Assembly: GCA_035710445.1 (NCBI GenBank)
Contig: DASTDH010000160.1
Coordinates: 1-40,176 of the forward strand
DNA: 40,176 nt
Origin: Chthoniobacterales bacterium
Lineage (GTDB): Bacteria > Verrucomicrobiota > Verrucomicrobiia > Chthoniobacterales > JAFAMB01
Direction of reading: 5' to 3'
Shown: one piece after another, positions 18,738-40,176 of the stretch
How positions within the stretch are numbered: position 1 is the first letter of the stretch
Layout: each line of letters starts with the position of its first letter
Notes under the pieces: model-generated
Seen by the model: the letters and a program-made list of their open reading frames with translations, nothing else
Database searches by the model: none
What the model was told of the DNA's origin: nothing
Program-made: the position numbers and the translations under genes

Positions 18738-18741
18738 AAGT

Positions 18742-19665
18742 GTGAACTACCCTGTTATCATCGAACTTCTGACCGCCTCAGTCCGCATCGCGACACCGCT
18801 TCTATTCGTGGCGCTTGGCGGTGTGATCTCGGAGTCCGGCGGAACGTTTGCGGTCGGAGTGGAGGGGATGATGCTGGGAGGAGCTTTCGGCGGGGCGGTG
18901 ACGGTCTTAGTGACCAAAAACGTCTTGCTTGGTCTTATGGCCAGCTCGATTTCAGGAGTCGTGCTTGCTGCGATCGTTGCGGTGGCAACGGTCCGCTTCA
19001 GAACGGATCACATGGTTACCGGGCTGGCTGTCAATATTTTTGCTTTGGGCCTAACTAGCTTCCTGCTGAGGGGACTCTTCGGCGGGAAGACGCCGGTGAT
19101 GGTATTGCCTACACTCGGCGCGCTGCAAATTCCCGGGCTGTGCGATTTGCCTTTGGTTGGTCCTGTTCTGTTTGACGAACCGGCGATGACCTATCTCGCT
19201 TTTCTGTTGGTTATTCCAGTACATTTGTTTCTTCGGAGAACATGTGCTGGCTTGACGCTCCGCGCGGCAGGCGAGAATCCTGCCGCTGCCTTCTCGGTCG
19301 GGGCCAACCCGGAACAGATCCGGATGGTCGCAGTGATCGTATGTGGCGCATTTGCGGGACTGGGCGGTGCGGTGCTTTCTCTACAAGAGTTAGGAACGTT
19401 TACCGACGGAATGACAAACGGTCGTGGTTTCCTTGCTCTCGCGGCGATTATCGTTGGCCGCTGGATGCCGTTTCGAGTGATGGGTGGCTGCCTGTTAATT
19501 GGCGCTGCTTCGGCGCTGGCGCTGAACATCCAGGGCTGGGGATTGCCGGTAAGTTCTTACGTAATCCAAATGACCCCCTATTTAATCGCTTTGGCAGTTC
19601 TTTGCGGGATCGGGCGCAAGGCCCGCATGCCGGAGGCGATCGGTAAAGCGTTCATCCGCAACTGA
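18742..19665 (+). CDS. ABC transporter permease (BMP/CUT2 type), second subunit
   Basis: GTG start 4 nt after the previous stop. Polytopic, with the GVEGMMLGGAF motif paralogous to the preceding permease. Confidence 0.85.
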   Translation: MNYPVIIELLTASVRIATPLLFVALGGVISESGGTFAVGVEGMMLGGAFGGAVTVLVTKNVLLGLMASSISGVVLAAIVAVATVRFRTDHMVTGLAVNIFALGLTSFLLRGLFGGKTPVMVLPTLGALQIPGLCDLPLVGPVLFDEPAMTYLAFLLVIPVHLFLRRTCAGLTLRAAGENPAAAFSVGANPEQIRMVAVIVCGAFAGLGGAVLSLQELGTFTDGMTNGRGFLALAAIIVGRWMPFRVMGGCLLIGAASALALNIQGWGLPVSSYVIQMTPYLIALAVLCGIGRKARMPEAIGKAFIRN

Positions 19666-19695
19666 ACGAACGAAGAGGAAATCAACAGCATTACT

Positions 19696-20787: not shown

Positions 20788-20808
20788 AACCGCGTGACGG
20801 GAGCGTGT

Positions 20809-22212: not shown

Positions 22213-22270
22213 AAACGTTCTTCGCGCTACCGCAACTGGAAAAATTGATCCCCCAATAGTTGGCTTCCAA

Positions 22271-23377: not shown

Positions 23378-23477
23378 TCCAACCACGGAGTTTAGGGCGG
23401 CACCAGGCGCCGTCCCACATTGAACAAAGCATTTGATGTATGATATTGCTGCCTTCGATGGCGGCAGGAGCAACACG

Positions 23478-24743: not shown

Positions 24744-24955
24744 GTGTTGGCGAGATGCAGTTCGCGACGTGCGACGGTATCGCTTCGGCTGGATTCCAGC
24801 GACCGGGTAGATCGCGCACGACATGGTCAACGCCTGACTTTTTGAATGTGTTAGTTCAACAACTGATGATACGATCCTGAGCCATTGCGGACACTGACTG
24901 ACCAAACCAGTCTCGGTTCAGTCGGATCGCAGACACAGGGATCGAAGCGACCACC

Positions 24956-26296
24956 ATGTGCAAGAATGCATGCTTCAATCGATGGGCGGGAGCGGCGGGA
25001 ATCGCCGCTGTCATACTATTTCTTGGCTCGATTTCGTCCGGCTCGGCTGCCGATGAGAAAGGGATCGGCTTCAGCCTGGACAAGGCATCTTCCGGGACCG
25101 AGGTGCCGCAGGCAGAGGTAAGTCTCGGCATGCGTCCCTATGCCAACGATTTGATCTTCGTTGCCGGAATAAAGCAGGGGTTTTACAAGGATGTCGGTCT
25201 AACCGTTACACCCGCTCCGTATGGACGGAAGGTGCTGCCAGATCAGGCGATCCCGCTTCTGGTCAACAAGCAGATCGACTTCATGGCGCTCTATCCACCC
25301 GACATCATTGCGACCATGGATTCGGTCCAAAACGTTCGATTTATCGCGTTAACCGACCTTTTCCAAGGATTTGCTGTCCTCGCTCGCCCAGGCTCGAACG
25401 TGAAAACCGTCGAACAGTTCATGTCTGATGGGTTGACTTTTGAAGAAGCGATGAAGCGAACCATGGCTCAGCTCAAGGGTAAGAGCTTCGTTACCGCGCC
25501 GGTCGTCGACAACCGCATCTTTCTTGAGACGGTCTTTTCGCTTGGCGGAATGAACATGGACAAAGATACGAAGTTGGTTGTCACACCTGACTCGAATGCG
25601 CTCCAGCTCGAGACTGGCGGCAAGGTCGATTTTGCCTCGCCGACCGGCGCCCCGTTTACAGCACAGCTCCGTTTTGCGGGTTGGATCCCGCTGGTCACCC
25701 CGCTCGACGTACTAACCAATATGCCAGCCGGTCCGGGTTCACCAACGGCAGCTTTGGTCGGCACGCCAGGCGTCGCTTGTGACGCGCAATGGGCGCGGGA
25801 GCACGCCGAAACCGTACTCCGCTTCACATCGGTGATGTTTCGCATCATCGAACAGGAGCAAAAAGACCCCGACCTGATGCTCAAATCGATGCTCGATTAC
25901 GTGAATTCTTTTGCCGGCACGAGTCTCGATATTGCCGGGCTCAAACTGACGATCGACAGCTTAAGCCCTTTGTCGAACTTTGAGTTTCAAAAGAACTACT
26001 TCGACAATCAGAATTCGGCGTTGTACTACCGGACAGCTTTCGACGCGGCGGTAAAATTTAACGTCGACAAGGGCGTTCTACCCAACGGCAAATACGATGC
26101 CGACGACGTGATCTGGGCCTCCGGTGTGTATCACGACATGGTTGCGTTGAAGCAGGCGGCGGACGACCTGCTCAAGCGAGCCGGAGGTTCGAATCTTTCA
26201 AGCCAAAACCAAGCTCTGCTCGAGAAAGCAAAGCAGTTCTACGGTTGGTACGACTATCTGGACGCTTATCGGCTGCTGCGCGTGGCGGTGCAATGA
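24956..26296 (+). CDS. ABC transporter substrate-binding protein, NMT1/THI5-like (NitT/TauT family) with a C-terminal extension of about 100 aa
   Basis: Sec signal (AAVILFLGSISSGSAADE). Body has GFYKDVGLTVT...VNKQIDFMALYPP...FAVLARPGSNVKTVEQF, typical of NitT/TauT binding proteins. TauC/TauB-like partners follow. At 446 aa it is about 100 aa longer than usual. Confidence 0.6.
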   Translation: MCKNACFNRWAGAAGIAAVILFLGSISSGSAADEKGIGFSLDKASSGTEVPQAEVSLGMRPYANDLIFVAGIKQGFYKDVGLTVTPAPYGRKVLPDQAIPLLVNKQIDFMALYPPDIIATMDSVQNVRFIALTDLFQGFAVLARPGSNVKTVEQFMSDGLTFEEAMKRTMAQLKGKSFVTAPVVDNRIFLETVFSLGGMNMDKDTKLVVTPDSNALQLETGGKVDFASPTGAPFTAQLRFAGWIPLVTPLDVLTNMPAGPGSPTAALVGTPGVACDAQWAREHAETVLRFTSVMFRIIEQEQKDPDLMLKSMLDYVNSFAGTSLDIAGLKLTIDSLSPLSNFEFQKNYFDNQNSALYYRTAFDAAVKFNVDKGVLPNGKYDADDVIWASGVYHDMVALKQAADDLLKRAGGSNLSSQNQALLEKAKQFYGWYDYLDAYRLLRVAVQ

Positions 26297-27162
26297 CTTT
26301 TCGTGCAACCCAGCATTCGTCGGATCCACTTCTGCCGAGCTCACGAATGGACCCGACCGGCCGCCTCATCAAACGCACCACTACACGAAAGAATCTCATC
26401 GGCATCCTCTATACCCTCGCTGGCCTGGGCCTCTTCATTGTGGCTTGGTGGTACGCCGCGAGCCAGCTTCCCAGGAGCCGGCTGGTTACGCCGCTTGAAG
26501 CCGGAACCGATATTTGGATCAATTTTCTGTATTCACGTCGTCTTGCTGTCTTTGGCTTGGGCAAGGTAGGCTACGGCTCGCTATTGCTTTATACGGTCGG
26601 CAACGTGCTCACCGGGCTCGCAGCCGGCGGGGCGATCGGTATATTTATTGGAACCGCTAGCACGCGATTGCGTCTCCTCCGGCTATTCGTAGACCCCGTT
26701 GTCCTGGTTCTAGGAACCGTACCCGTCCTAGTGGCCGCACCGCTTTTCCTCCTTTGGTTTGGAGTCGTCCCATTCACGCAGGTCTTGCTCGTCGCCTTTT
26801 ACAGTGCGGTCATGATGGTTCTGTTTAGCCAGCGAGCGGCGGAAAACATAGATCCGGTTTATGAGCGCTGGGCCACGACTTTCGGCGCAGGAATCGCTGT
26901 TCGAATCCGTCATATCCTCATTCCTGGCACAGTCCCCGAGATCATTGGCGGCTTGCGTATTACGCTGGCGAGCGCTTGGGGCCTTGAGGTCTTCGCGGAA
27001 ATTCTGGGCGCTCCGAGCGGTATGGGCCAGGCAATAAAGGCATTTACCAACCTCAATAATGTATCCGGCCTTCTTGCCTGCGTCGTCATCGTGGCGGTAA
27101 CCGCTATAGTCACTGACATTCTCCTAGTCGCACTTGCGCGGCGAGTCACTGCGTGGGCGTAG
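26293..27162 (+). CDS. ABC transporter permease (NitT/TauT family)
   Basis: The ATGA overlaps the SBP stop (26293-26296). It has 6 TM helices and the family loop ASAWGLEVFAEILGAPSGMGQAI. Confidence 0.8.
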   Translation: MTFRATQHSSDPLLPSSRMDPTGRLIKRTTTRKNLIGILYTLAGLGLFIVAWWYAASQLPRSRLVTPLEAGTDIWINFLYSRRLAVFGLGKVGYGSLLLYTVGNVLTGLAAGGAIGIFIGTASTRLRLLRLFVDPVVLVLGTVPVLVAAPLFLLWFGVVPFTQVLLVAFYSAVMMVLFSQRAAENIDPVYERWATTFGAGIAVRIRHILIPGTVPEIIGGLRITLASAWGLEVFAEILGAPSGMGQAIKAFTNLNNVSGLLACVVIVAVTAIVTDILLVALARRVTAWA

Positions 27163-27164
27163 TC

Positions 27165-27929
27165 ATGGACCCCCAGAAACCCGCTCTTGCCGTTCAAGAC
27201 ATTGGGGTACGTTTTGTGCGCGCCGACGGCACCCCGGTTGTGGCCCTCGAAGGCGTGTCGCTTCAAGTTTTGCCGGGCGAATTTGTCTGCATACTAGGGC
27301 GCTCGGGCCACGGCAAAACGACGCTGCTCAATGTCGTCGCGGGATTGCTTAAGGCGCAGCGTGGAGAAGTGCGAGTGATGGATCAGCTGGTGACTGGTCC
27401 CGGCCCTGACCGGGGCGTCATTTTCCAGCAAGATGCCGTGTATCCTTGGATGCGAGTAGAGGACAACGTCGCTTTTGGCCTCAGGGTTCGCCATATCTCT
27501 AACCAGGAACGGTTGCGGATCGCGCGCGAACAGTTGGCACTGGTTGGCCTTTCCTCGGTGGCTCGCGCCTGGCCGCGCGAGTTATCGGGCGGCATGCGTG
27601 CCCGGGTTGCCATTGCCGCGGTCTTTGCCAATGATCCTCCTATCCTGCTGGCCGACGAGCCGTTCGGCGCGCTCGACTATGTGACCCGGCGTCAGCTTCA
27701 AGCGGTGATGCAAAATCTTTGGCGACGGACGGGGAAGACAGTCCTCTTCGTCACTCACGATGTGGACGAGGCTATGATGCTCGGGACGCGCGTCATTGTC
27801 GTAAAGAACGGTGGCATAGCAGAGGATCGACCGATCGATTTGCCAATGCCGCGGAGCGACGACGATGTCGCCACTGAAGCGGGGCTCGCGATTAAGCATC
27901 TACTGTTGCATCACATCGGGTTGGAATAA
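27165..27929 (+). CDS. ABC transporter ATP-binding protein (NitT/TauT family)
   Basis: Walker A GRSGHGKTT. Signature LSGGMRARVAIA. Walker B ILLADEPFGALD. H-loop VTHD. ATG lies 2 nt after the permease stop. Confidence 0.9.
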   Translation: MDPQKPALAVQDIGVRFVRADGTPVVALEGVSLQVLPGEFVCILGRSGHGKTTLLNVVAGLLKAQRGEVRVMDQLVTGPGPDRGVIFQQDAVYPWMRVEDNVAFGLRVRHISNQERLRIAREQLALVGLSSVARAWPRELSGGMRARVAIAAVFANDPPILLADEPFGALDYVTRRQLQAVMQNLWRRTGKTVLFVTHDVDEAMMLGTRVIVVKNGGIAEDRPIDLPMPRSDDDVATEAGLAIKHLLLHHIGLE

Positions 27930-27933
27930 GTAG

Positions 27934-28842
27934 ATGAAGATGAATATTCGAGTATCGGGCCCGCTCGGAGGTGTTACTGTTCTACTGGTCCTGGTTATCG
28001 CCTGGGAATTGCTTTCCTTCATCGTAACCGCCAAAGGCAGCTATGACGAGCCCTTGATCCCTGGCTGGGGCTATCTGGTCGGCAATTCGCTATTGCGCAT
28101 GTCAGATTATTGGGGCGGCGGATTTGGAGTGCCGGCTCCATCGGAAGGGGGCCCGCCCACTTACGCAGCCGCGTTTCTTGCGCTAGGCAGCGCATCCCTT
28201 GTCACTTTCCAGCGAGTACTTTTCGGCATCATGTTCGGAACGCTCGGCGGTATCAGCCTCGGGCTGCTTGTGGCGACCTTCGATGCGGCCCGCCGCCTGA
28301 TCGCGCCGACCGTACACATCGTCCGTATGACGCCCTTTTTGGCAATGATTCCGCTCTTCAATTTATGGTTTGGAGCAAACACTTTCGGGATCGTCTTGTT
28401 TGTCGCCTATGGTGTCGCAGTCATTATGTTCATCGGCACCGTGAACGCGGTTCGCAACGTGCCAAAAGTCTATTTCGAACGTGCGGCAACCGTGGGCGCG
28501 AGCCGAGCTACAGTGTTTCGCCACGTGGTCCTGCCGGCGATATTCCCGGAAATCCGCGCATCCTTCTTGCTCAGCTTTGGTCTTTCGTGGAGCCTCGTCG
28601 TCGGTGGCGAGCTGCTCGGAGCCCAGAGTGGTCTCGGCGTCATCGTGACTTACGCGTTGCAATTCGCCTATACCGGGCGGGTGATGATAATAGCGTTCCT
28701 ATTCGTCATCTATGCTGGACTCAGCTTCGCGCTCTTCGACGCGATCTCTCGCCGGATCATCGATTGGCATCCGCAGGTGGTGCAGAGACTGATTTCGGCA
28801 CAAGTAAGCCGACGCGGTGTAGTCGGCACCATCCGCCAGTGA
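27934..28842 (+). CDS. ABC transporter permease (NitT/TauT family), second subunit
   Basis: Polytopic. Paralogous loop SWSLVVGGELLGAQSGLGVIV. ATG lies 4 nt after the ATPase stop. Confidence 0.8.
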   Translation: MKMNIRVSGPLGGVTVLLVLVIAWELLSFIVTAKGSYDEPLIPGWGYLVGNSLLRMSDYWGGGFGVPAPSEGGPPTYAAAFLALGSASLVTFQRVLFGIMFGTLGGISLGLLVATFDAARRLIAPTVHIVRMTPFLAMIPLFNLWFGANTFGIVLFVAYGVAVIMFIGTVNAVRNVPKVYFERAATVGASRATVFRHVVLPAIFPEIRASFLLSFGLSWSLVVGGELLGAQSGLGVIVTYALQFAYTGRVMIIAFLFVIYAGLSFALFDAISRRIIDWHPQVVQRLISAQVSRRGVVGTIRQ

Positions 28843-28854
28843 ACGCCTGTCAAG

Positions 28855-28884
28855 AGACTTGAAAGCGTGGGTTGACTGGGACTC
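28855..28884 (-). repeat. Orphan inverted copy of the 3' end of tRNA-Lys plus part of its downstream flank (att-like remnant)
   Basis: 28867-28884 (gtgggttgactgggactc) is the exact reverse complement of 40102-40119 (T-loop/T-stem, acceptor 3' strand, discriminator, first C of CCA). 28855-28862 (agacttga) is the reverse complement of tcaagtct at 40128-40135, and a GCT also matches between the two blocks. No acceptor 5' strand, D arm or anticodon arm is present, so it is not a tRNA gene. Confidence 0.85.
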
Positions 28885-29110
28885 TCGCGAAGCCCAAAGC
28901 GATCTTTTGCCGGGCCCGTCTTTTCGGAAGCTCGGTTAGCACGCCCGGCGCTAGAGCAGTGGGTGGAATGGTTCGAGGAAACGAAATTCCTATCACGGAC
29001 GTGCGGCGGCAGGAACAGTAAATACGGCAAATCGGCCAAAAAACGGGCTGTCTTTCAAATCGTGTTGTCTAGTGCCTCTACTTCGGAACGATCGTCCGCC
29101 GAATGGAGAA

Positions 29111-29572
29111 ATGAACGAGTACTCTAAGAATCACCGACACGTTAGTGACCGCCGGCCGGAGAAGTCCCGCTTCTCGAAATGTTTGGTCGAACTCTGGCGC
29201 GATCTGCATGATGACCAGCATTGGAAGTATGAAGCATCTTCGCCGGTGCAAATACTCGAAAACTTGAAGCTGGATAGGTGCCAACAGAACCATGATGAAC
29301 TCGTGCGTGCCGAATGGTTCTGGAATCGCCGGCCACGCTTCCTTCGCGCGACCAGCTATGCGGTTTGGCTTTTGGCGGCTCTCGGGCTGCCATTCTGGCT
29401 TTTCATAATTCCTGCAATCGGAGTACCGCTGCTCATAATATCGGCGGTGGCGGTCGGTACCGAGATCGTGCAAAACGTGCGATGGCGACGCCAGTACGAA
29501 CTGAGTATCGATCGACTGGTCCGCGCTTCGGTAAGCGGTAAAGATACCTTCGGTGTGGATGCGTTCGCGTAG
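29111..29572 (+). CDS. Hypothetical membrane protein (two adjacent TM helices)
   Basis: Open frame with AVWLLAALGLPFWLFIIPAIGVPLLIISAVAVG. No family recognised. Start is ATG 29111 or GTG 29072. Convergent with the hybrid kinase gene. Confidence 0.35.
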   Translation: MNEYSKNHRHVSDRRPEKSRFSKCLVELWRDLHDDQHWKYEASSPVQILENLKLDRCQQNHDELVRAEWFWNRRPRFLRATSYAVWLLAALGLPFWLFIIPAIGVPLLIISAVAVGTEIVQNVRWRRQYELSIDRLVRASVSGKDTFGVDAFA

Positions 29573-29709
29573 ACCGGATCAACAACCGCTTCGTACGGTT
29601 CTGCCATGATCGCTTGGGAAGACCGTGCGCGGTCCCCTTCGGATAGCGCTTATTGGATTTCGCACCGAGCCAGATCCTTTTGTCCGTTGGAGCGGCACAA
29701 GAACGAAAA

Positions 29710-32073
29710 TCATTTTGGTTTTAATCGTCTTCGATAGTCGTCAACCGAAACAGTTAGTGACTCCTTTAGATCAGCGACCGCTCTCTGATCGACTTGAGAG
29801 CGTGACGATTTAGCGGCGTTCTCCACGACGTTGCAGAAATGGGCTACCCGCATCGCGCCGACGTATCCAGCGGCGGCCTTCAGCTTATGTGCCTCTGAGG
29901 CAAGGACATTCGGCTTGTCTACCAACTCAGGCAGCCGGCGGGCCAATCGTTCGGCTTGGACAATGAAGAGTTGTAGAACCTCGGTAACAAACTGATCAGG
30001 TTCATCAACTTCCATAAGTTCCCTTAATTGGCCCTCGTCACACACCGGCAAATCAGAGCCCGCCGCGGGCGAAGGTCGATCAGCCGATCCTGTTTTGCTG
30101 GTTGCTGTCAATACCTCTTTCAACTCATCCATGCCCACCGGTTTGGTGAGCTTATCATCCATACCGGCTCCGAGGCATCGTTCCCGTTCCTCGCTGAGAG
30201 CAGTCGCCGTGAGGCCGACGATTCGCGGTTGCCTGGAATTTGGTAATGAGAGACGAATCTGGTGGGTGGCCTGCAAACCGTCGACTCCAGGCATTTGTAC
30301 GTCCATCAAGATGAGGTCAAAGGCTTGGCTTTGCACGGCGGCGATTGCTTGGAGTCCGTCTTCGGCTTCCGAAATCTTCCGGACCCCAAGTTTTTGCAAC
30401 TGCGCGACGCAAACCCGGCGATTCACGGTGTTGTCATCCACCACCAGAATGTTGAGTCTGGAGAGAGTCGGATCTGGCTCCGAAACTGGTTCTGACAAAG
30501 CACCGGCGTCGTTGGTGTCGACTAACAATCCAACTGCGTGAAGGAAGTGGCGCTTTTTGAGTGGAAGCGACAGCACGGTGGCGCTCGGATAACGGTTCGC
30601 CAGTTCGGAGATGTTCTTGGAACGAGTAAGAAGAACGATTCCTGGGCCGACCTGCGGAATCCGAATCTCGCAGTGATCGGCGTCGATGACCAAGTAGTCC
30701 GGCGGAGGGCTATCGAGAGTTTCCGGTTGCTCGGATCGGACGGTGAATTCCGCGGCAAGCTCTTCCGCCCAAGTGGCCAGCAGTCGAGCGAGTCGGGTAT
30801 CCTGGACTACTGCAACCATCCGCTTGCCACTCAAATCCTCGGCTTTGTGAGAGGTTTCGATGTCGGCGCTGGGAAGTGAGATTACAAAATGAAATCGAGT
30901 ACCCTTCCCCTCCGTGCTTTCCACCCAAATCCGACCACCCATGATTGCGGTCAAGTTTTGACAGATTGATAGACCTAATCCCGTGCCGCCAAAACGTCGG
31001 TTAGTCGACGCGTCTACCTGGCTGAAGGCACGAAAAAGCCGATCGAGTTTGTCCGGTGGGATACCCACGCCAGTATCTTCCACGCAAAAATGTATCATCT
31101 CATCGCTACCAACCGAAGGCTCTACCTGTAGGTAGATTTCGCCGCCGGACGTGAACTTGATCGCGTTGTTCACCAGATTGAGGAGGATTTGCCTTACCCT
31201 GGTAATATCGCCGACAACCGTGCAAGGCGTCCGCGGGTCGATCCAAGCGCTGATTTCAAGCCCCTTATCGAATGCCATCGGTGCCAATAGATCCATCGCC
31301 TGATCGACTACGTCGCGGAGCGTAAAGTGAATTGACTCCAGTTCCAGTTTACCGGATTCGAACTTGGACAGATCCAGGATATCGTTGATGATGTGTAACA
31401 GAGTTCCCCCGCTCGTGTGAATGAGATTGACAAACTCGCGCTGACGAGCGTCGAGGCTCGTGTCAGAAAGGATCTCCGCCATCCCAAGAATCCCGATCAG
31501 TGGCGTCCGTACCTCATGGCTCACATTTGCGAAGAAGACCGATTTGAAACGAGTCGCATCCTCCAACTTTTGGTTGAGAAGCACTAACTCGCAGTTTTTC
31601 TCGGTCAGTTCCCGTTGACTCGCTTCGAGAGCCTGAAACGCTCGCTGTCGTTGCAATTCGTGGATGTACGCTTGTGAATGCAAACGCACTCGCGCGAGCA
31701 ATTCGATCCGGTGCGGCAATTTGACCATGTAATCGTTCGCTCCTGATTCAAACGCTATCCGTTTGATGGCGGGATCCTCTTTGCTGGAAAGGACAATGAC
31801 CGGAACCGCGCGGGTAAGCGGGTGCTTGCGATATTCTTTTAGCAGGTCGAGTCCGTTCGCCCCGGGCATCACGAGGTCCTGCAAGATCACAGTGGGACTG
31901 ATCTTGACGGCCGATTCGAGCGCTTCCTTGGGATCGCTTACGTAGTGGAAGGCGATCGCCGGATCGGCTTCCAGCATGCGTCGAACGCCCTCGGCCACCA
32001 TTGCTTGGTCATCTACTAATAACACCAAGATCTTCTCAGTCTCCTTCTTGATGTCTTTGATTGTCGAACTCAT
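29710..32073 (-). CDS. Hybrid sensor histidine kinase/response regulator: REC, coiled coil, HisKA, HATPase_c, receiver-like module, REC, Hpt (787 aa)
   Basis: N-REC (LVLLVDDQ...VILQDLVMPGANG...VLSSKED...DYMVKLP). H-box FFANVSHEVRTPL. N-box LLNLVNNAIKFT. G1 DTGVGIP. G2 GGTGLGLSI. C-REC (ILVVDDN...LILMDVQMPGVDG...LTATA...KLTKP). Hpt (ASEAHKLKAAAGYVG). There is no TM segment and no recognisable sensor domain other than the N-terminal receiver. Confidence 0.9.
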   Translation of the reverse strand: MSSTIKDIKKETEKILVLLVDDQAMVAEGVRRMLEADPAIAFHYVSDPKEALESAVKISPTVILQDLVMPGANGLDLLKEYRKHPLTRAVPVIVLSSKEDPAIKRIAFESGANDYMVKLPHRIELLARVRLHSQAYIHELQRQRAFQALEASQRELTEKNCELVLLNQKLEDATRFKSVFFANVSHEVRTPLIGILGMAEILSDTSLDARQREFVNLIHTSGGTLLHIINDILDLSKFESGKLELESIHFTLRDVVDQAMDLLAPMAFDKGLEISAWIDPRTPCTVVGDITRVRQILLNLVNNAIKFTSGGEIYLQVEPSVGSDEMIHFCVEDTGVGIPPDKLDRLFRAFSQVDASTNRRFGGTGLGLSICQNLTAIMGGRIWVESTEGKGTRFHFVISLPSADIETSHKAEDLSGKRMVAVVQDTRLARLLATWAEELAAEFTVRSEQPETLDSPPPDYLVIDADHCEIRIPQVGPGIVLLTRSKNISELANRYPSATVLSLPLKKRHFLHAVGLLVDTNDAGALSEPVSEPDPTLSRLNILVVDDNTVNRRVCVAQLQKLGVRKISEAEDGLQAIAAVQSQAFDLILMDVQMPGVDGLQATHQIRLSLPNSRQPRIVGLTATALSEERERCLGAGMDDKLTKPVGMDELKEVLTATSKTGSADRPSPAAGSDLPVCDEGQLRELMEVDEPDQFVTEVLQLFIVQAERLARRLPELVDKPNVLASEAHKLKAAAGYVGAMRVAHFCNVVENAAKSSRSQVDQRAVADLKESLTVSVDDYRRRLKPK

Positions 32074-32159
32074 TTGTCGCCGGTCGCTGATCGTTTATCG
32101 GCGGCACCTCTCAGGGCCCGCTGGCAACCTTCCGTTTCTGCCGGTAGCCTGTTTACCGA

Positions 32160-33194
32160 TCAGCGAACTCCTCTCTTGGAATCTGTTGCTCTCACTTCAG
32201 GACTAAAAAGTTCCCTCAGGCGTGGTCCAATCTTCTGCAGTGGTAAAATTTCACTCGCAGCGTTGATTGCGGCGGCAGCTTTCGGCATGCCGTACACCGC
32301 GCTGGTGCTTTGGTCCTGCGAAATGGTATGATGTCCGGCATCGCGCAAAGTTTTTAAACCTCGCGCACCGTCCCGACCCATTCCGGTCAAGAGGACGGCT
32401 GTAATTGGTCCTCGAAACAAGCGCGCTGCACTACCGAAGAACACATCGACGGAAGGGCGGTACGGATTTTCTTTCGGCTCGACGGTGTAGCCAAGTTCGT
32501 GGGAATTCTTGAAAACAAGATGATCTTCGCTCCCGGCGACAAAAACCTTGCCCGAACTCACTGCATCGCCTTCACAAGCCAAACGCACTGGTAACTTTGA
32601 ATACTCATTTAACCACTCTACCAGTCCCGGCGCGAACAGCTGGCCAATATGCTGAACGATGACAACGCCGGGAGAAAAATCTTCCGGCAGAGAGGACAGA
32701 ACCTCGACTAATGCAGCCGGGCCGCCCGCGGAGGCGCCAATTAGAATTAACTTGTTAGCTGTGCCTTCAACTTTTGGAACTATGTCACCGGCCACATGAT
32801 CCAAGCCGGCAATCTGACGCTCAATGCTCTTTATCTTCACCAGCAACGCCGGTCCGGTCTTTTGCGACGCAAAAGCCGTCGGGGTATGTATGGCGTCTAT
32901 CGCACCTGCGCTCAAAGCTTCAAAAACCTTGGCCGCATTTCCGGCAACGGTCGCTGTCACAATCAGTATCGGACAAGGCGTACGACTCATGATTCGACGA
33001 GTTGCTTCGGCCCCGTCCATGTATGGCATGATTAGATCCATCAAGACGAGTTCCGGCAAATCGCTTTCACATAGCTTGACGGCTTCTGCGCCGTCGCGTG
33101 CAATCCAGGCGATCTGATGCTCCACCGAAGAGCAGACGAGCCGGCGCAGCAATTCAGTTGCCATTGGCGAATCGTTCACGATGCCAATTCTCAT
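32160..33194 (-). CDS. cheB: Chemotaxis response regulator protein-glutamate methylesterase (WspF-like)
   Basis: REC (RIGIVNDS...LVLMDLIMPYMDG) plus the methylesterase domain (LILIGASAGGPAAL, VVIVQHI, GMGRDGA). The ATGA overlaps the cheA stop. Confidence 0.9.
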   Translation of the reverse strand: MRIGIVNDSPMATELLRRLVCSSVEHQIAWIARDGAEAVKLCESDLPELVLMDLIMPYMDGAEATRRIMSRTPCPILIVTATVAGNAAKVFEALSAGAIDAIHTPTAFASQKTGPALLVKIKSIERQIAGLDHVAGDIVPKVEGTANKLILIGASAGGPAALVEVLSSLPEDFSPGVVIVQHIGQLFAPGLVEWLNEYSKLPVRLACEGDAVSSGKVFVAGSEDHLVFKNSHELGYTVEPKENPYRPSVDVFFGSAARLFRGPITAVLLTGMGRDGARGLKTLRDAGHHTISQDQSTSAVYGMPKAAAAINAASEILPLQKIGPRLRELFSPEVRATDSKRGVR

Positions 33195-35476
33195 TCGGTC
33201 GCCTCGCCTATTAAGTTTACCACTGCCTGGAGTAACGCCTCGTCATGGAAACCTGCTTTGACCAGATAATAGTCTGCTCCGGCATCTAACCCGCGTTGTC
33301 GATCTTCTGCGCGATCCTTGTAGGAAACAATCATTACCGGGAGTGACTTCAGGTTTGAAGCCTTTTTGATGAGCGTCACCAACTCGATGCCATCCATGCG
33401 CGGCATATCAATATCGGTAATGACTAAGTCAAAGTGACCTGTCCGGGCAGCATTCCAGCCATCCATCCCATCGACGGCAACCTCGACTTCGTAGTGTCGA
33501 GTCTGCAAAAGCTTCTTCTCCAATTCACGGACCGTCAGTGAATCGTCCACCACCAATACACGCTTGGGTCTTTTTTGCGTCTCTTCGCGGCCCACATTTT
33601 GCACTGCACCCGAGGTCCCGGCTTCAATATTTTTTTCGATGGAGCGAATCAGATCCTCTACGTCTACGATCAAAACCGGTGAACCATCATCCAGAAGTGC
33701 TCCCGAACTGATATCCTTGATCTTTCCTAATCGCGGGTCCAACGGCCTTATTACGAGTTCCCGTTCACCAAGAAATTTCTCGGTGACGATGCCGTAACAA
33801 TTTGCTTGGTTGCCGACGACAACCACAGAGACCTGCTCGCTCGAGTAACTGTCTTCCCTACCTCCGAAAATCCGGTTAGCCGCGATGAGACCGATTTGGC
33901 GATCCTGGAAGCGAAAATGCTGCCGTCCCGCTGTAATCTGAATATCCTTTTTCGCCACTTTGAGCGCACGATTGATGTGCACCAGTGGAAAAGCATATGG
34001 CTCGTCGCCAATCTCAACAAGCAACGCTCTTACGATCGAGAGGGTCAAGGGTAGCTGCATCTGCAAGGTTGTTCCGCGACCGACGTCCGTCCAGATGCGG
34101 ATAGCGCCGCGTACCTCCCTGACTATTGCCTGAACCGCATCCAAACCGACTCCGCGGCCGGAAATCTCCGTAATCGTCTGCTTCATCGTGAAGCCGGGCA
34201 GCAGAAGAAACTCGAGCACTTCGCTATCGCTCATTTGTTCCGCCGCCTCTGGGGACGTGAGGTTCTTTTGGACGATAGTATTTCGTAATTCCGCCAGGTC
34301 GACTCCGCGGCCATCGTCGGAAATAGTAATTAGAAGATTGCCGGCACTATGTTGGGCCTCCAGCCGTATGTTACCCTCAACTGATTTACCTGCCACGCGG
34401 CGCACCTCGGGTAGCTCAATCCCGTGATCGATAGCGTTGCGCAAAAGATGGGTAAGCGGTGCTTCCAGCTTTTCCAGAATATCGCGATCGACGTAGGTGT
34501 CGGGGCCTCGTATTTCAAGCCTCACTTGTTTTCCGAGATCGCGCGCCAAATCGCGCACCATTCGCGGAAAACCGTGGATGCCGTCGGCAAACGGTCTCAT
34601 CCGACAGGCTAAGGCCTCGTCGTAGAGGCGATGCGAGAGATTGGCCGAACGCCGGTGGAAGCTCTCCAACTCGAGTAACCGTTCTGACAAGTCCTCGCGA
34701 CATCGCATCAATTGAGCCCGCGCTTGGGCAACTTGAACTTCTGCATGTTCGCCCACGTCCTCCAAGCTGAGCAACTCGCGAACTTGATCGAGTATTTGAG
34801 TCAACTCGTTATGCTGTCGCTTGATACGCAGCAACGACTCTAAAAAAGGAACCAACCGACGGGATTCGACCAGCGATTCACCGGTGAGTGCAAGAAGTCG
34901 ATTTAAATTTTCCGGAGTGACGCGCAAAAATCGCTGACGCTTCCGCTTGGCATCTTCGACATCGTTTGACGGCGAAGGGATTGCCGCCTGCGCCTTGGGC
35001 GTAATCGTCGCAGAACCATTGGCGTCCTCTGATTGCGACGACTCGGTGTCAGACGAGTCGTCAATTCGCAGCTTGGCGAGGGCTCCTAGAAGCTGTTGCA
35101 CCTCGGCCGCACGCTTCGATTTCTCTGTCTCGATTTCGTCATCTGGCGCTTGGGCGATTCGCTGTAGCAAATCCACACCGCGCAACAGCAGATCGACATG
35201 TTCGGGGAGCAGTACCAGCGATCCTTGCTGCGCCGCGACGAATACATCTTCCAACTCGTGCGCCACAGAGACCGCGGCGTCGCGATCTACCATCCGTGCG
35301 GCGCCTTTCAGCGAATGCGCCGCGCGCATCAGTGCTTCCAACCGCGATGCATCGGTTGGATCTGCCTCCAGCCCAAGCAAATTCTCCGTAAAGACAACGC
35401 TCTGGTTTTCCACCTCGAGCCGGAAAAGCTCGGTCATGGAAAACTCGCTCAAATCATTTGGATCTTTTGCGCTCAC
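33191..35476 (-). CDS. cheA: CheA-type histidine kinase with a C-terminal receiver (WspE-like CheA/CheY hybrid)
   Basis: Hpt (AAHSLKGAARMV). N-box HLLRNAIDHGIE. G1 DDGRGVD. G2 SGRGVGLDAV. CheW-like domain. C-terminal REC (VLVVDDS...LVITDIDMPRMDG...VSYKD...YYLVKAG). The GTG start overlaps the upstream cheW stop (GTGA). Confidence 0.9.
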   Translation of the reverse strand: MSAKDPNDLSEFSMTELFRLEVENQSVVFTENLLGLEADPTDASRLEALMRAAHSLKGAARMVDRDAAVSVAHELEDVFVAAQQGSLVLLPEHVDLLLRGVDLLQRIAQAPDDEIETEKSKRAAEVQQLLGALAKLRIDDSSDTESSQSEDANGSATITPKAQAAIPSPSNDVEDAKRKRQRFLRVTPENLNRLLALTGESLVESRRLVPFLESLLRIKRQHNELTQILDQVRELLSLEDVGEHAEVQVAQARAQLMRCREDLSERLLELESFHRRSANLSHRLYDEALACRMRPFADGIHGFPRMVRDLARDLGKQVRLEIRGPDTYVDRDILEKLEAPLTHLLRNAIDHGIELPEVRRVAGKSVEGNIRLEAQHSAGNLLITISDDGRGVDLAELRNTIVQKNLTSPEAAEQMSDSEVLEFLLLPGFTMKQTITEISGRGVGLDAVQAIVREVRGAIRIWTDVGRGTTLQMQLPLTLSIVRALLVEIGDEPYAFPLVHINRALKVAKKDIQITAGRQHFRFQDRQIGLIAANRIFGGREDSYSSEQVSVVVVGNQANCYGIVTEKFLGERELVIRPLDPRLGKIKDISSGALLDDGSPVLIVDVEDLIRSIEKNIEAGTSGAVQNVGREETQKRPKRVLVVDDSLTVRELEKKLLQTRHYEVEVAVDGMDGWNAARTGHFDLVITDIDMPRMDGIELVTLIKKASNLKSLPVMIVSYKDRAEDRQRGLDAGADYYLVKAGFHDEALLQAVVNLIGEATE

Positions 35477-36177
35477 GTCAGGCTCCGATCGAGCATATCG
35501 AAAAGCAATTGATCATCGAGGCAGCCAACACTCTTGTTCTGCCAAGGCAGTATGCCTCTCAGGTAAGTCGTGTGTGCTTTTGCGACTGTGGAGGGAACCC
35601 CGGTCAACTCATCTGAGCTAAACCGGCAGATGCCATGCACTTCGTCGACGGGGAAAACAAATCGCGAACCTTCGCGACCCGCCACCACCAACCGACGATA
35701 AATCGCGCGTTTTGAGCTCACCGGTTCCGGCCCGATTTTTTCTAACCCAAGCAGTTGGTCGAGGGCCACGCAGACTAACAATTCCCCACGAATATTGGCT
35801 AAGCCCAAAAGAATGCTGCTTCGTGCCTGTGGCACGGAGTGAGCAGGACGATCCTCCGCAATTTCTTGTAAATTCGTTGGTGACAATGCCAGCCACTCCG
35901 CACCGATGCGAAATATCAGAGCAGCTTGCATCGAGTGGCTCTCGACTCTTACCTCGGTGGCGAAATGCGTGGTCCAGCCTTCCAAATAATCCTTGGGCAG
36001 TTCTCCTCCAAGGAGTTGGGCAGCCGCCGATGAATAGACGATGCAGTTGCGGCAATGGATCAAGTGTTTCAACTCGCCGCATTCGCGATTGCCCCAAACA
36101 CCGATCTTGTTCCAACAATCGTTGAGCTTGACGGAACTCATAGATCCCGAAAGCGCTTTCGGCAGATCCGGTTTCAT
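35473..36177 (-). CDS. cheW: CheW-like coupling protein with an N-terminal four-Cys extension (WspD-like)
   Basis: NDCWNKIGVWGNRECGELKHLIHCRNCIVYS (C-x11-C-x8-C-x2-C) is followed by a CheW domain (ALIFRIGAEWLALSPTNLQEI...GLANIRGELLVCVALDQLLG). ATG 36177 forms an ATGA overlap with the cheR stop; the longest ORF starts at 36216. Confidence 0.85.
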   Translation of the reverse strand: MKPDLPKALSGSMSSVKLNDCWNKIGVWGNRECGELKHLIHCRNCIVYSSAAAQLLGGELPKDYLEGWTTHFATEVRVESHSMQAALIFRIGAEWLALSPTNLQEIAEDRPAHSVPQARSSILLGLANIRGELLVCVALDQLLGLEKIGPEPVSSKRAIYRRLVVAGREGSRFVFPVDEVHGICRFSSDELTGVPSTVAKAHTTYLRGILPWQNKSVGCLDDQLLFDMLDRSLT

Positions 36178-37412
36178 TTCGTTCGCTCCAAAACGCGGTG
36201 AGCACGGTTTTTCCAAGCCTCGGCCGCTGCGCGGTCGCCGTTTTTGTCCGCCAGCAGCGCGAGGTGAATCAGCGAATCATAATGATCCGGTTCAAGATAA
36301 AGCGCTTTGCGATAGAACTCATTCGCCTGGTACTGATCTCCCGCGCAATCGCGGATCAAGCCCAGCAAATGAAAGGCGTGTGCCGAGGGGCCTTGCTCAC
36401 GCAAAACGACTTCGCAGATCTCGGCCGCTTCTCTCAGTCGTCCTTGATCGGCTAATTGTTGAGCAAAAGCTAGATCAGGCACTAAGTTATTTTCGTACTT
36501 CACGGTTTCCGGCACGGCTTTCTTAGGAGCTATCAAATCCGGCTTGCGAATGGCTTCGCTCCGGCGTGCCTTCGCAGGCAGCCAAACTTTCGGTTTCACT
36601 TTCGGCAGTGGACGAAAAGCAACCGGCTCGCTCTTGCAAAAAGCAAATGCCATCGGCAATTTCACAGAGGAAAAACCGTGCTGAGTGAGTAGGGCTGTTT
36701 CCGCTGACCCGACAAACAATAGTCCGTCTGCAGTCAATAACTCGCTTAAGCTTTTAAGCGTTTGCCGCTGTGCCTCGCCATCAAAATAGATCAGCAGGTT
36801 GCGGCAGAAGATAAAATCGTAGGGTTCGCCGCCAAGTCCAAAACGTTCTTCCAACACGTTTCTTTGCTCAAATCTTACGCACTGACGCACGGATTCGCAT
36901 AGACAAAAGCCGGCATCGGTCTTCTGGAAATATCGATCCCGAAATTTAAGGTCGCTGCCCCGGAATGAATTGCCGCCGAACAGGCCGAGCCTTCCGATAT
37001 CGAGCAAATGCGCGCTGATGTCGATCGCATCAATTTGCAATCTCTCCGGCGGAAATCCGGCCTCGAACAAGGTCATGGCGATCGAATAGGGCTCTTCACC
37101 AGTCGAGCAGGCGACGCTCAGCGCCCGCATCTTTTTCGTTCCAAGGAGAAATCGTTCTCCGACGATCTGTCGCAAGGCGATGAATGATTCAGGGTATCGA
37201 AAGAAAAAGGTCTCTGGGATCACTACCACTTCAACTAAGCTCTGCAATTCTGTTTGCGAGCGTTGCAAAAGTTCAGCGTAACGCGAAATATCTCGAAGGT
37301 CGTTCGCGCGCAGGCGCTGTTGGACAGCGCGTTCGATCAAGCTGAGTCCGACCGACGCGACATCGAGACCGATGGTCTGGCGGAGCAATGCAATGATGGA
37401 TGCAGGCGACAT
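36174..37412 (-). CDS. cheR: Chemotaxis protein methyltransferase with a C-terminal TPR region (WspC-like)
   Basis: The CheR SAM-binding core is present (ALSVACSTGEEPYSIAM, FIFCRNLLIYFD). The C-terminal TPR-like repeats follow (AFAQQLADQGRLREAAEICEVVL...FHLLGLIRD...YRKALYLEPDHYDSLIHLALL). Confidence 0.9.
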   Translation of the reverse strand: MSPASIIALLRQTIGLDVASVGLSLIERAVQQRLRANDLRDISRYAELLQRSQTELQSLVEVVVIPETFFFRYPESFIALRQIVGERFLLGTKKMRALSVACSTGEEPYSIAMTLFEAGFPPERLQIDAIDISAHLLDIGRLGLFGGNSFRGSDLKFRDRYFQKTDAGFCLCESVRQCVRFEQRNVLEERFGLGGEPYDFIFCRNLLIYFDGEAQRQTLKSLSELLTADGLLFVGSAETALLTQHGFSSVKLPMAFAFCKSEPVAFRPLPKVKPKVWLPAKARRSEAIRKPDLIAPKKAVPETVKYENNLVPDLAFAQQLADQGRLREAAEICEVVLREQGPSAHAFHLLGLIRDCAGDQYQANEFYRKALYLEPDHYDSLIHLALLADKNGDRAAAEAWKNRAHRVLERTK

Positions 37413-37909
37413 CAGCTTGAAACAAGTTCACGAAACAGCACATCACGAAGTTCGGGCGTGAGCAATCGTTCGACCTCGATCCACTGGATTAACCCACCGG
37501 CGTCAGTAACCACTCGGCCAAGATAGGGCGCATTCTCGGACTCAACTCCTGTCTCCACAAAATCTTGGGCCGATCGCCGAATCATACTCGTCGCGCGCTC
37601 AGCGATCAGACCGAGCGGATGTGGATTTTGAGCCTGGAGCGGATACTTCACTAGAATGATGCGCGTGCTCAAGCGCTGCGCGGCAGGTTCCGCCAGCGTC
37701 ATTTCGTTTAAATCGATCACCGGCACGGGAGTTCCATGATAATTTAATATCCCGGCCACCCCGACCGGCGCACCGGGCACTCTTTTCAGGTTTATCAGTG
37801 GAAGAACCTCAATGATAACGCCGGCAGACAATGCGTAACGGTCCCGACCAATCTGGAATAAGATAAAAAGCATGCGGAAGGAGATGGGGGTATGGAGGTC
37901 AAGCGCCAT
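37412..37909 (-). CDS. cheW: CheW-like coupling protein (WspB-like)
   Basis: [23 protein letters not shown]...[15 protein letters not shown] is a CheW fold signature. Overlaps the MCP stop by 11 nt and the cheR start by 1 nt. Confidence 0.85.
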
Positions 37910-39392
37910 TCAACTTGAACCGCGAGACGCTGGTGCGCAGATCGTTGGCGGTGGAATTCAATTGATCCATCACGATGCTTGATTGATGGAGCGACTGGAC
38001 GGTTTGCTGTGCCGATTCGGTCAACTGGGCCAGCGCTTCGCTGATCTGTTGTGCGCCGGTCGACTGCGATTGCATCCCTTCGTTTACGGTTTCGAACTGA
38101 GGCGTTAATGCCTGAACTTGGCTGATGATTTGCGCCAATTGTTCGCTCACCTGTTCGACTTCTTGCACTCCTCGGCGGACCTCTTCGGAGAACTTGTCCA
38201 TACCCATTACCCCGGCAGAAACCGCCGACTGCATCTCCTTTACAAGCTGTTCGATATCGTAACTGGCTACGGCTGTTTGGTCCGCAAGCCGCCGAATCTC
38301 CGTAGCGACAACAACGAACCCGCGGCCATGCTCGCCGGCCTTTTCCGCTTCGATGGCCGCATTGAGCGAAAGTAGATTCGTTTGGTCGGCGACCTTCGTG
38401 ATGGTCGTCACAACCTGGTTAATGTTACTCGCTTTCTCATTCAAGACTGCCAGCTTGGCATTAACCGCCCCCCCGGCTTCCATCACCTGCCGCATAGTGG
38501 CTTCCATCCGGGCCAAGCCGCTCTGGCCGGTGCCGGCCAAACTGGCCGTTTGCTCCGCGACTTCAGTCACCTCATTGATTGTGTTGAGCAGCACCTTGGA
38601 GGTTGCCGCAATCTCCTTGGAGGTTGCCCCTATTTCGCTGGTCGCAGACGCCGTCTCCGCGCTGGTAGCCTGATGTTCTTTGCCGGTAGCCGCAATCTCG
38701 GTCACCGAAGAGGCCACTTGCAACGCTGAACGCTGCACTTGAGTAATCAACGAATTGATTGCGCGCACAACGGAGTAGCAAATCAGCACCGCAAGAATGA
38801 GACTGAGGATTATACCGATGATAAGGACGACTTTTGACTGCGCGGCTGCCGAGTTGAGTTTCTCGACCGCGGTCGCGGCCGCTCTCTTGTTGTATGCCAG
38901 GTCATCGTTGATACCCGCTAGAAACGCCCTGAATTTTGGCTGGAGCTGTTGGTCGTAGAAGTTGTAGGCCTCTTGATCTTTCTGGGCCCGGCTCAGTTTC
39001 AGAACCTCCTCCAGGTTAGTAACGTAAGCCGAATAGGTCGTGTTCAGCCGCTGAAACCGTTCGGTCTCTTCGGTACCAAAGACCGTCGCCTCGAAGGCTT
39101 TGAAGAGGGCGCTTAACTTTTCGTGGTTCTCCTGCAACGCCTCGTCCAGTTTCTGCACTTCCTGGGCATCGTTGGCCTTAATGTGCTGTAGAATCAACGC
39201 AACTTCCCGTTCACTAAAAGCCGTGATCTGTGCCATCAAAACTGCCCCGGGAAGACTATCCTTGGCCAGAGTTGCCGCCTGACTTTGGATCGCCCCTAAT
39301 CGCGAAAATGCGTAAACACTTACGCAAAGAGTTATCAGTATGACCCCGGCAAATCCGAGGGTAAGCCGCTTCCCAATAGTCCAATTTTTCAT
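37899..39392 (-). CDS. Methyl-accepting chemotaxis protein, 4-helix-bundle periplasmic sensor (WspA-like)
   Basis: TM1 ([16 protein letters not shown]). Helical periplasmic domain of about 155 aa. TM2 ([22 protein letters not shown]). Signalling hairpin [35 protein letters not shown]. Confidence 0.9.
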
Positions 39393-40045
39393 GATTCTCG
39401 CTGCCGCACTCCCGCCGTGTATCGTTAAGTGCTCATCAGGTCGCCGAGAACAACAGAACTGCCCTCACGCCGCGATGATGGGCTCGCTGTCTGGAGCCCG
39501 CGGGGAAATTATGATGTCCAGGAGAATCGGGGCTAACTCCGAACGCCCAAAGCAGTATGGATTGCCAGCCGGAGGGACGAACGCTGATTGGCTGGTTCCT
39601 CTCTTCGCGAATGTGCGCGATCCTCGAAAAACCGAAATGAGGTGTGACCGGAATGGGCGCGATGGAATGGCAATGAAACGAGCAAACGTCACGTTTGCCG
39701 AGTTTGCACTTAACGGCGCCGGGAGGCAATGATATTCATAATTACAATAGTTGCTGGAATGGAATCGGATTGAGGTCGACCGGGAGTTCTACACATCCAC
39801 CGTGCGTTGGACAACCTGGCCGCATCACAGCGACGATCGAGGTCTTCCGTCGAACCGATTATAGTAGCCTCCGCGAGGACTTCGGTTTGACGAGACGCCG
39901 CTCAAACCGGCCGAAACACCCTGTGCTCCCAAATAGAACAGGTCAATGGTTGGCCAAACCGACGAGTGGGATGTATGTTGCCTCGGGGCCGCGGAAAAGC
40001 GCTTGCAGCACTGGATTTCGACGATACTGTTCCATTCCTTTTGCC

Positions 40046-40121
40046 GGGTTGATAGCTCAATCGGTAGAGCAGCGCCCTTTTAAGGCGTTGGTTCTGGGTT
40101 CGAGTCCCAGTCAACCCACCA
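40046..40121 (+). tRNA. tRNA-Lys (anticodon UUU), CCA encoded
   Basis: The cloverleaf was folded by hand. Acceptor stem GGGTTGA/TCAACCC (7 bp). D stem GCTC/GAGC. Anticodon stem GCGCC/GGCGT with loop CTTTTAA. 5-nt variable loop. T stem CTGGG/CCCAG with loop TTCGAGT. Discriminator A, then CCA. Confidence 0.9.
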
Positions 40122-40176
40122 GCTAGATCAAGTCTAGGAGCCGATCCGCGAACCAAATCGGCGATTCACCAAAAAA

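Follow-up and report, generated by a model that had tools for sequence, protein, structure and literature searches.

The window analyzed here, 40,176 nucleotides of contig DASTDH010000160.1 from a Chthoniobacterales bacterium, is one contig of a 6.1-Mb metagenome-assembled genome (MAG) in 770 contigs, which is 93% complete and 8.5% contaminated. Seven open reading frames (ORFs) on the minus strand fill positions 29710-39392 of this window and, according to Pfam, encode in this order a methyl-accepting receptor protein (MCP), a CheW, a CheR with a tetratricopeptide (TPR) region, a second CheW, a CheA with a receiver domain (REC), a CheB, and a kinase. They form a chemosensory cluster of the Wsp type, in which the place of the GGDEF-type output protein WspR is taken by the kinase. 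The genes are the following:

37899..39392, minus strand: WspA-like methyl-accepting receptor (MCP); Pfam 4HB_MCP_1 (E 3e-28) and MCPsignal (E 4e-34)
37412..37909, minus strand: WspB-like CheW coupling protein; Pfam CheW (E 1e-19); 11-nt overlap with the MCP gene
36174..37412, minus strand: WspC-like CheR methyltransferase with C-terminal TPR region; Pfam CheR (E 4e-38) and CheR_N
35473..36177, minus strand: WspD-like CheW with N-terminal four-cysteine motif; Pfam CheW (E 2e-18), residues 99-240
33191..35476, minus strand: WspE-like hybrid CheA, Hpt(P1)-HATPase(P4)-CheW(P5)-REC; Pfam
32160..33194, minus strand: WspF-like CheB methylesterase, REC and CheB_methylest; Pfam CheB_methylest (E 1e-55)
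32074..32159, minus strand: intergenic gap of 86 nt between cheB and the kinase gene
29710-32073, minus strand: kinase of 787 amino acids with REC, HisKA, HATPase_c, REC, and Hpt domains; Pfam

An initial annotation, made from the letters of the window alone, had given the same gene order and domain content, which agree with the ORF calls and the Pfam domains. Its junctions are also those computed here (-11, -1, -4, -4, -4, and +86 nt), with the provision that the second CheW starts at the ATG at position 36177. This start produces an ATGA junction between the genes of CheR and the second CheW; the longest ORF of the latter would begin with a TTG at 36216 and overlap the CheR gene by 43 nt. 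The two junctions that follow, from the second CheW to CheA and from CheA to CheB, are both -4 nt (GTGA and ATGA, respectively). No terminator-like or sigma-70-like site was detected on the minus strand of the 86-nt gap in a promoter and terminator scan, a result of little weight, since promoter-like sites were fewer than in shuffled sequences. In other clusters, cheB and the kinase gene are separated by as little as 3 nt (locus L089, from the annotated gene ends) and by as much as approximately 100 nt (L090), and in L011 the tblastn matches of the two genes end approximately 14 nt apart. The Wsp-type gene order is present on a single strand and tightly packed. The cluster is a predicted operon, and its arrangement is not a matter of chance: relatives with CheA proteins 42-80% identical to that of the window have the seven genes in the same order.

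The kinase consists of five modules, all encoded on the minus strand:

31549..32031, minus strand: WspR-type receiver and helical stalk, kinase residues 15-175, with D21, D22, D66, S96, and K118; matches WspR structures
30874..31548, minus strand: HisKA (His186) and HATPase_c core, residues 176-400; Pfam HisKA (E 1e-20) and HATPase_c (E 2e-33)
30529..30840, minus strand: degenerate receiver-like module, residues ~412-515; hhalign and AlphaFold model
30091..30462, minus strand: canonical receiver, residues 538-661, with D546, D547, D591, T622, and K644; Pfam Response_reg, residues 542-655
29722..30036, minus strand: Hpt four-helix bundle, residues 680-784, with His729; Pfam Hpt (E 5e-9)

In the PDB, kinase residues 7-164, a segment that includes the stalk, align with structures of WspR at approximately 60% identity (3i5a, E 1e-53; 3bre, E 2e-50), while the next match follows at E 1e-16 with 64 bits versus 184 bits for WspR. 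Because the matches to the WspR structures far outscore the next PDB match, the input module is a genuine WspR-type receiver-stalk, as had been anticipated when the protein was described as the WspR input design grafted onto a kinase core. Within the MAG, this module scores 354 bits to itself and at most 69 bits to any other receiver; it is present in a single copy. No GGDEF domain was found in the protein by Pfam. The remainder belongs to an ordinary hybrid-kinase family, with same-genome paralogues being 45-51% identical over the kinase core, and residues 154-759 match the NCBIfam model BarA with 443 bits, which is under the cut-off of that model.

The residues required for a phosphorelay are retained throughout. 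The H, N, G1, F, and G2 boxes are intact, as are the conserved histidine of the DHp domain, the receiver aspartates, and the Hpt histidine. In an alignment of 65 homologues, D21, D22, D66, S96, and K118 of the first receiver (REC1), H186, N299/N303, D333-G335-G337, F347/F350, and G363-G365-G367 of the core, D546, D547, D591, T622, and K644 of the second receiver (REC2), and H729 of the Hpt domain are all invariant. The middle module (residues ~412-515) has no Pfam match. Its profile, built from 71 homologues, was matched by hhalign to those of REC1 and REC2 with probabilities of 99.0% and 97.4%, respectively; its acidic pair is reduced to Q-D, the conserved lysine is absent, and one helix is deleted. 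AlphaFold predicts a reduced alpha/beta fold at residues 418-513, so that the earlier designation of this module as receiver-like is borne out on both counts. In L121 the equivalent module is a recognizable REC, and a faint Pfam match to Receiver_CRE1 was obtained at that locus. The position of the pseudo-receiver between kinase and receiver recalls RcsC and the plant protein CRE1.

The AlphaFold model of the kinase (mean predicted local distance difference test score 79.8) contains one uninterrupted helix from residue 122 to residue 203, which comprises alpha5 of REC1, the stalk, and alpha1 of the DHp domain with His186. In the model, this helix gives a direct mechanical route by which phosphorylation of the receiver would reach the kinase. 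REC2 is modeled as a (beta-alpha)5 fold and the Hpt domain as a four-helix bundle. Neither Pfam nor the model revealed a transmembrane segment or another sensor domain in the kinase, which confirms its initial description as a soluble protein that lacks any further sensor.

Among the chemosensory components, the MCP (37899-39392) has two transmembrane segments, and its sensor is a periplasmic four-helix bundle; Pfam detected no HAMP domain in it. HAMP is present in the orthologous MCP of L011 (2618-4255) and in Burkholderia WspA, and absent from the MCPs of the window and of L012 (6583-8103), both of which have only approximately 12 residues between the second transmembrane segment and the signaling helices; this looks like a lineage-specific loss. 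Support for the TPR region of CheR is modest and consists of weak TPR_8/TPR_17 matches at residues 344-393 (Pfam) and an NCBIfam TPR-repeat match (E 5e-8) at residues 312-399. The second CheW carries an N-terminal extension of about 95 residues that includes the motif C-x11-C-x8-C-x2-C (CWNKIGVWGNRECGELKHLIHCRNC). The consensus of this WspD motif is CW.(R/K)IG..G(D/N)..C..L....HC(R/L)NC, corresponding to residues ~21-45 of the window protein when counted from the ATG. At least 32 of 46 Wsp-type clusters from Verrucomicrobiota and Burkholderiaceae have this four-cysteine motif, which may constitute a metal site. CheA is 50-57% identical to WspE of Burkholderiaceae Wsp clusters, and CheB passes the cut-off of the NCBIfam CheB subfamily NF009206 (424 versus 342 bits). 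A noncoding stretch of about 115 nt located 5' of the MCP gene (39521-39633) is 71% identical to positions 4649-4765 of L183, upstream of the orthologous cluster there; it has no Rfam match and may represent a promoter or leader.

The linkage of the kinase to the cluster is conserved in relatives. The nearest loci, with kinases 74-79% identical, are found in MAGs of uncultured Verrucomicrobiae/Chthoniobacterales from soil. The order of the seven genes, with a REC-stalk-kinase at its end, is retained in L010, L011, and L183 (CheA 75-80% identical) and in L089 and L090 (CheA 52-55%), where the called genes carry the same Pfam set. It also occurs in L121 and L122 (CheA 52-57%), whose kinases of 693-703 amino acids have no Hpt domain, and in L144 (CheA 42%), whose output protein of 399 amino acids is a REC-histidine kinase (REC-HK) only. 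A kinase gene unlinked from the cluster in relatives, which according to the initial annotation would speak against a common pathway, was overall not encountered, the exceptions being L009, L012, and L138. L009 harbors a kinase paralogue next to CheA-REC and CheB-REC fragments and a Mu-transposase fragment, and L183 is the intact cluster of the same genome. Just upstream of that paralogue is a 200-aa ORF (L009, 9305-9907) in which C-terminal CheA receiver sequence continues into N-terminal CheB receiver sequence, and which looks like the deletion scar of a duplicated cluster; downstream of the kinase, the Mu-transposase fragment follows after 0.6 kb. A contig search with the whole kinase was discarded as a linkage probe, as the matches that came after the four closest relatives were for the most part generic hybrid kinases not located in che clusters; REC-stalk and CheA probes were used instead.

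The REC-stalk probe matched 30 of 401 sampled Verrucomicrobiota genomes (approximately 7%), representing 21 of 185 genera. Besides that of the window, 29 loci were recovered: 20 are situated just after the CheB gene of a Wsp-ordered che cluster, two follow a cluster devoid of CheB, and seven have no CheA or CheB within the surrounding 12 kb. The GGDEF motif is absent from all 29 sampled verrucomicrobial outputs. About 23 of them are REC-stalk-SpoIIE/PP2C proteins of approximately 400 amino acids and four carry kinases, with Pfam run on three of the sampled outputs for this classification. The WspR-type REC-stalk-SpoIIE/PP2C protein, as seen in L124, L126, L143, and about 20 other loci, is the usual verrucomicrobial Wsp-type output, which suggests partner-switching or dephosphorylation rather than cyclic di-GMP (c-di-GMP) signaling. 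Among the kinase-length proteins of a set of 5.8 billion, 2429 have this receiver type at E<=1e-10, cyclase fusions included; two of these, P0078 and P0086 (~780-810 aa), combine three receivers, one of them WspR-like, with an adenylate/guanylate cyclase domain.

For Burkholderiaceae, 20 clusters were sampled. Fifteen have a REC-stalk-GGDEF gene after CheB, and five have a gene for a 377-aa REC-HisKA-HATPase protein 5' of wspA, which is the published arrangement of WspH. Sampling Burkholderiales at the level of the order had missed the latter type, which was captured when WspE was used as the probe at the level of the family. One Burkholderiaceae genome possesses a WspH-type and a WspR-type cluster (L169 and L170, both on contig C3 of G885), at odds with the literature, in which the two are stated not to co-occur in any genome.

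In comparison with the Wsp system of Pseudomonas, the gene order is identical and so is the set of components, namely, a 4HB-type MCP, CheW, CheR-TPR, four-cysteine CheW, CheA-REC, and CheB; the receiver and stalk of the output protein are ~60% identical to those of WspR. The initial view that the cluster is of the Wsp type, with the output gene in the WspR slot, is upheld by the order, by the WspD motif, and by the WspR-type REC-stalk. Unlike in Pseudomonas, the output carries HisKA-HATPase-pseudoREC-REC-Hpt in place of GGDEF, leading to a predicted phosphorelay rather than to c-di-GMP; further, the MCP lacks HAMP, and the host is a non-flagellated soil Verrucomicrobium. The phosphorelay core HisKA-HATPase-REC-Hpt is shared with the unorthodox kinases BarA/GacS, ArcB, TorS, and RcsC. 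However, all scores of the window protein fall under the equivalog cut-offs, no membrane sensor is present, and the input is an N-terminal WspR-type receiver.

A genetic precedent is WspH of the Burkholderia cenocepacia H-system, a REC-kinase in the place of WspR with a c-di-GMP-independent output (Kessler et al. 2021, PMC8552884; Cooper et al. as cited there). Mutations in wspH suppress wsp phenotypes, and the DNA-binding regulator RowR, located genetically downstream of WspH, is the candidate regulator (PMC8552884). Both systems combine a Wsp core with a fusion of a WspR-type receiver to a histidine kinase instead of GGDEF, and the predicted logic, from WspE through a REC-kinase to an unlinked DNA-binding regulator, is the same. 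The sampled WspH-type genes (L164 and others) encode, in contrast, proteins of 377 amino acids with REC-HisKA-HATPase only, and they are located 5' of the MCP gene (L164, L165, L167, L168, and L169), whereas the kinase gene of the window follows cheB. The receiver of the L164 protein is ~55-60% identical to that of the window kinase, as read off the alignment, but the kinase core is only ~25% identical (tblastn), and 35 residues of the window's stalk ahead of the His box have no counterpart in the BLASTP alignment. In the WspE tree, the five WspH-type systems (support 100/100) are placed deep inside the Burkholderiaceae clade (98/99), while the window, L010, and L011 form a clade of their own (100/100), adjoining other verrucomicrobial kinase types. 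From the separation in the tree, the low core identity, and the gap in the stalk, the window kinase therefore looks like an independent fusion rather than an orthologue of WspH, and the kinase output would have arisen at least twice.

Biochemical precedent is available from the Che3 system of Rhodospirillum centenum, in which CheA3 phosphorylates the receiver of CheS3 in vitro and CheS3~P in turn phosphorylates CheY3 (He et al. 2013, PMC3868531). Che3 is likewise a cluster of the alternative cellular functions (ACF) class with two CheW, a CheA-REC hybrid, CheB, CheR, and a second, receiver-gated kinase. CheS3 differs in having a REC-REC-PAS-HWE_HK architecture and in targeting a single-domain CheY3 encoded in the cluster, whereas the window kinase is of the HisKA type, lacks PAS, and carries its own REC-Hpt relay. 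ORF calls and Pfam revealed no single-domain CheY in the window cluster. By the available proxies, i.e., CheR-TPR and a multidomain regulator (criteria of PMC3447774), absence of FlhA, and a WspE-like CheA, the cluster would belong to the ACF class. CheR-TPR/ACF clusters with REC-HisK-HATPase(-REC-HPT) regulators were tabulated as early as 2012, approximately 40% of the regulators in CheR-TPR clusters carrying HisKA and HATPase (Munoz-Martinez et al. 2012, PMC3447774, text and Table S2; Wuichet & Zhulin 2010 as cited there). Table S1 of the same study lists CheR-TPR genes for Chthoniobacter flavus Ellin428. The regulators of that survey comprise the same set of outputs that is seen here on WspR-type receivers; its entries are, however, catalogue lines that come without analysis, and the architecture found in the window is devoid of PAS and has the extra pseudo-receiver. 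In view of the genetics of WspH (PMC8552884), the CheA3-CheS3 phosphotransfer (PMC3868531), and the tabulation (PMC3447774), the initial claim that this is not a characterized system does not stand.

The MAG encodes one full CheA, one MCP signaling domain, one CheR, and one CheB, so that no further Che sets are present, and it contains more than 100 kinase/receiver matches. FlhA was not found in the MAG, while positive-control genomes gave matches; because FlhA is lacking, the pathway cannot steer flagella. Other genes in the window encode ABC importers, two ring-opening amidohydrolases of the AtzD/TrzD type, an amidase, a CoA-transferase, ThyA, and FolA. A plus-strand cluster at 15030-28842 comprises a BMP-type ABC importer, the two AtzD/TrzD-family amidohydrolases flanking the amidase, a family III CoA-transferase, and a NitT/TauT-type importer, and looks like an operon for the catabolism of an N-heterocycle. 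The interpretation of the plus-strand genes at 15-29 kb as a cell-wall (dcw) cluster was rejected, as Pfam shows importers, amidohydrolases, an amidase, and a CoA-transferase instead; no connection between these genes and the chemosensory module is apparent. A tRNA-Lys(UUU) is encoded upstream of the MCP gene (40046-40121), and its 3' end recurs as a perfect inverted copy of 18 nt (GAGTCCCAGTCAACCCAC) at 28867-28884, past the other end of the module and 11.2 kb away. Neither an integrase nor a direct repeat was found within this bracket, leaving mobility unproven, and an Rfam search of 28800-40176 returned the tRNA only. The flanks of the module are not common to L009-L012 or L183. Downstream of the kinase, L089 and L090 have only a Peptidase_S66 gene in common.

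The reading favored here, which is considered probable, is a pathway from the receptor array via the WspE-like CheA to Asp66 of the kinase, from there through control by the stalk to His186, and further via Asp591 and His729 to an unlinked regulator. The sole receptor of the genome, the two CheW proteins, and the hybrid CheA would form the array, with adaptation being carried out by CheR-TPR and CheB. Upon a stimulus presumably perceived by this receptor, the phosphate on the P1 histidine of CheA would be transferred to CheB, to the C-terminal receiver of CheA itself, and to Asp66 of the kinase, the last of these transfers being postulated. Because the receiver is joined through a single stalk helix to His186 of the DHp domain, its phosphorylation would switch the kinase, that is, we infer that the signal travels via the stalk helix and changes the state of autophosphorylation or phosphatase activity at His186. 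From His186 the phosphate would be handed on to Asp591, to His729 of the Hpt domain, and to a response regulator encoded elsewhere, the putative final target; altered transcription of surface or envelope traits would be the likeliest result. The flow proposed in the initial annotation, from a CheA-type kinase to a receiver-gated kinase and through a His-Asp-His relay to an unlinked regulator, is thus retained as the best reading, with the phosphotransfers being predicted.

Several observations weigh against this pathway. Neither the window nor the orthologous loci have a response-regulator gene in the vicinity of the cluster, and downstream of the cluster no conserved, linked terminal response regulator was found in the window, L010, L011, L089, L090, L121, or L122. 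L138 has the same kinase architecture in a genome without a WspE-type CheA. At L012 (6583-12046), the genes of MCP, CheW, and CheR are followed, with a 4-nt overlap, by that of a 694-aa REC-HK-REC kinase without Hpt, and no WspE-type CheA was found in that MAG; the locus is either a remnant that naturally lacks CheA or the product of an assembly that is incomplete or misjoined. Several PP2C-type outputs are tens of kb away from their own cluster. Finally, the presumed sign of the control could be either, by analogy: phosphorylation of REC1 could activate, as in WspR, or inhibit, as in CheS3.

The separate position of the kinase in L138, together with the 86-nt gap from cheB, the L009 paralogue beside mere fragments of CheA-REC and CheB-REC, and the wealth of kinases and receivers in the MAG, would also suit a kinase that is an independent two-component neighbor, its receiver being served by another kinase and its adjacency to the che genes being incidental or a remnant of co-transfer. 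This is improbable, however, as the WspR-type REC-stalk is unique in the MAG and follows CheB in eight independent kinase-type and about 20 PP2C-type loci, while in Burkholderiaceae it stands after CheB in 15 of 15 GGDEF-type clusters and flanks wspA in all five kinase-type clusters; nor does the gap in front of the kinase gene hold a terminator-like site. The want of a linked cognate regulator in any locus can be explained differently if the kinase acts mainly as a phosphate sink, a phosphatase, or an internal feedback device, in which REC1, REC2, and Hpt drain phosphate or return it to CheA-REC or CheB and neither an external regulator nor a transcriptional output exists. The module has four receiver-type domains overall, and the receiver tethered to CheA3 of R. 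centenum has been interpreted as a sink (PMC3868531). For a sink, however, a complete and invariant autokinase core and an invariant Hpt histidine would be unnecessary. Because simpler relatives (L144, 399-aa REC-HK; Burkholderia WspH, 377 aa) keep the kinase but are devoid of REC2 and Hpt, kinase output would be the conserved function, and with the DNA-binding RowR genetically downstream of WspH (PMC8552884) a mere sink is an equally doubtful explanation.

The least credible alternative is a recently acquired, possibly non-functional island instead of a working native pathway. It would draw on the bracketing of the module by the tRNA-Lys gene and its inverted 18-nt copy, on flanks that differ from those of L009-L012 and L183, and on the loss of HAMP from the MCP relative to L011. 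Yet all seven ORFs are intact and their catalytic residues conserved, the G+C content is the same as that of the window, the bracket encloses no integrase and its repeat is inverted instead of direct, and the nearest relatives of every gene are from other Chthoniobacterales/Verrucomicrobiae; moreover, acquisition would not imply loss of function. The pathway from the receptor array through the receiver-gated kinase to an unlinked regulator remains the preferred reading.

With regard to evolution, the WspR-type receiver-stalk might be a portable input cassette that became joined, in independent events, to at least five outputs (GGDEF, PP2C phosphatase, simple kinase, unorthodox REC-Hpt kinase, and nucleotide cyclase), with Wsp possibly originating in the Planctomycetes-Verrucomicrobia-Chlamydiae (PVC) group with a non-c-di-GMP output and the textbook c-di-GMP Wsp being a late derivative; this scenario is put forward tentatively and is rather doubtful as it stands. 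In the maximum likelihood tree of WspE, the verrucomicrobial PP2C systems branch first, and those with a kinase fall together with the Wsp clade of Proteobacteria; the root is on one long outgroup branch and only two taxa were sampled, so that the order of events is tentative. The genes of Wsp have been noted in soil Planctomycetes (Andrei et al. 2019, PMC6461901), and Wsp has been stated to be exclusive to beta- and gammaproteobacteria, with the H-system restricted to Burkholderia (PMC8552884). A PVC origin, if true, would run against the view of Wsp as exclusive to these two classes and of kinase outputs as confined to Burkholderia.

Summarizing, the design is real and conserved, and it is already catalogued and partly characterized in other bacteria; chemosensory clusters with a receiver-gated kinase as their output constitute an established class, by which the original over-claim is corrected. 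Modestly new are the wider distribution, with Wsp-type clusters in Verrucomicrobiota none of whose 29 sampled outputs is a GGDEF protein, and the apparently independent origin of the kinase fusion. Genuine Wsp-type clusters, which have a receiver-stalk of WspR grade as well as the cysteine motif of WspD, reach Verrucomicrobiota. With its non-motile host, single receptor, and single Che set, the system would be a clean model for a chemoreceptor array that drives gene regulation via a phosphorelay.

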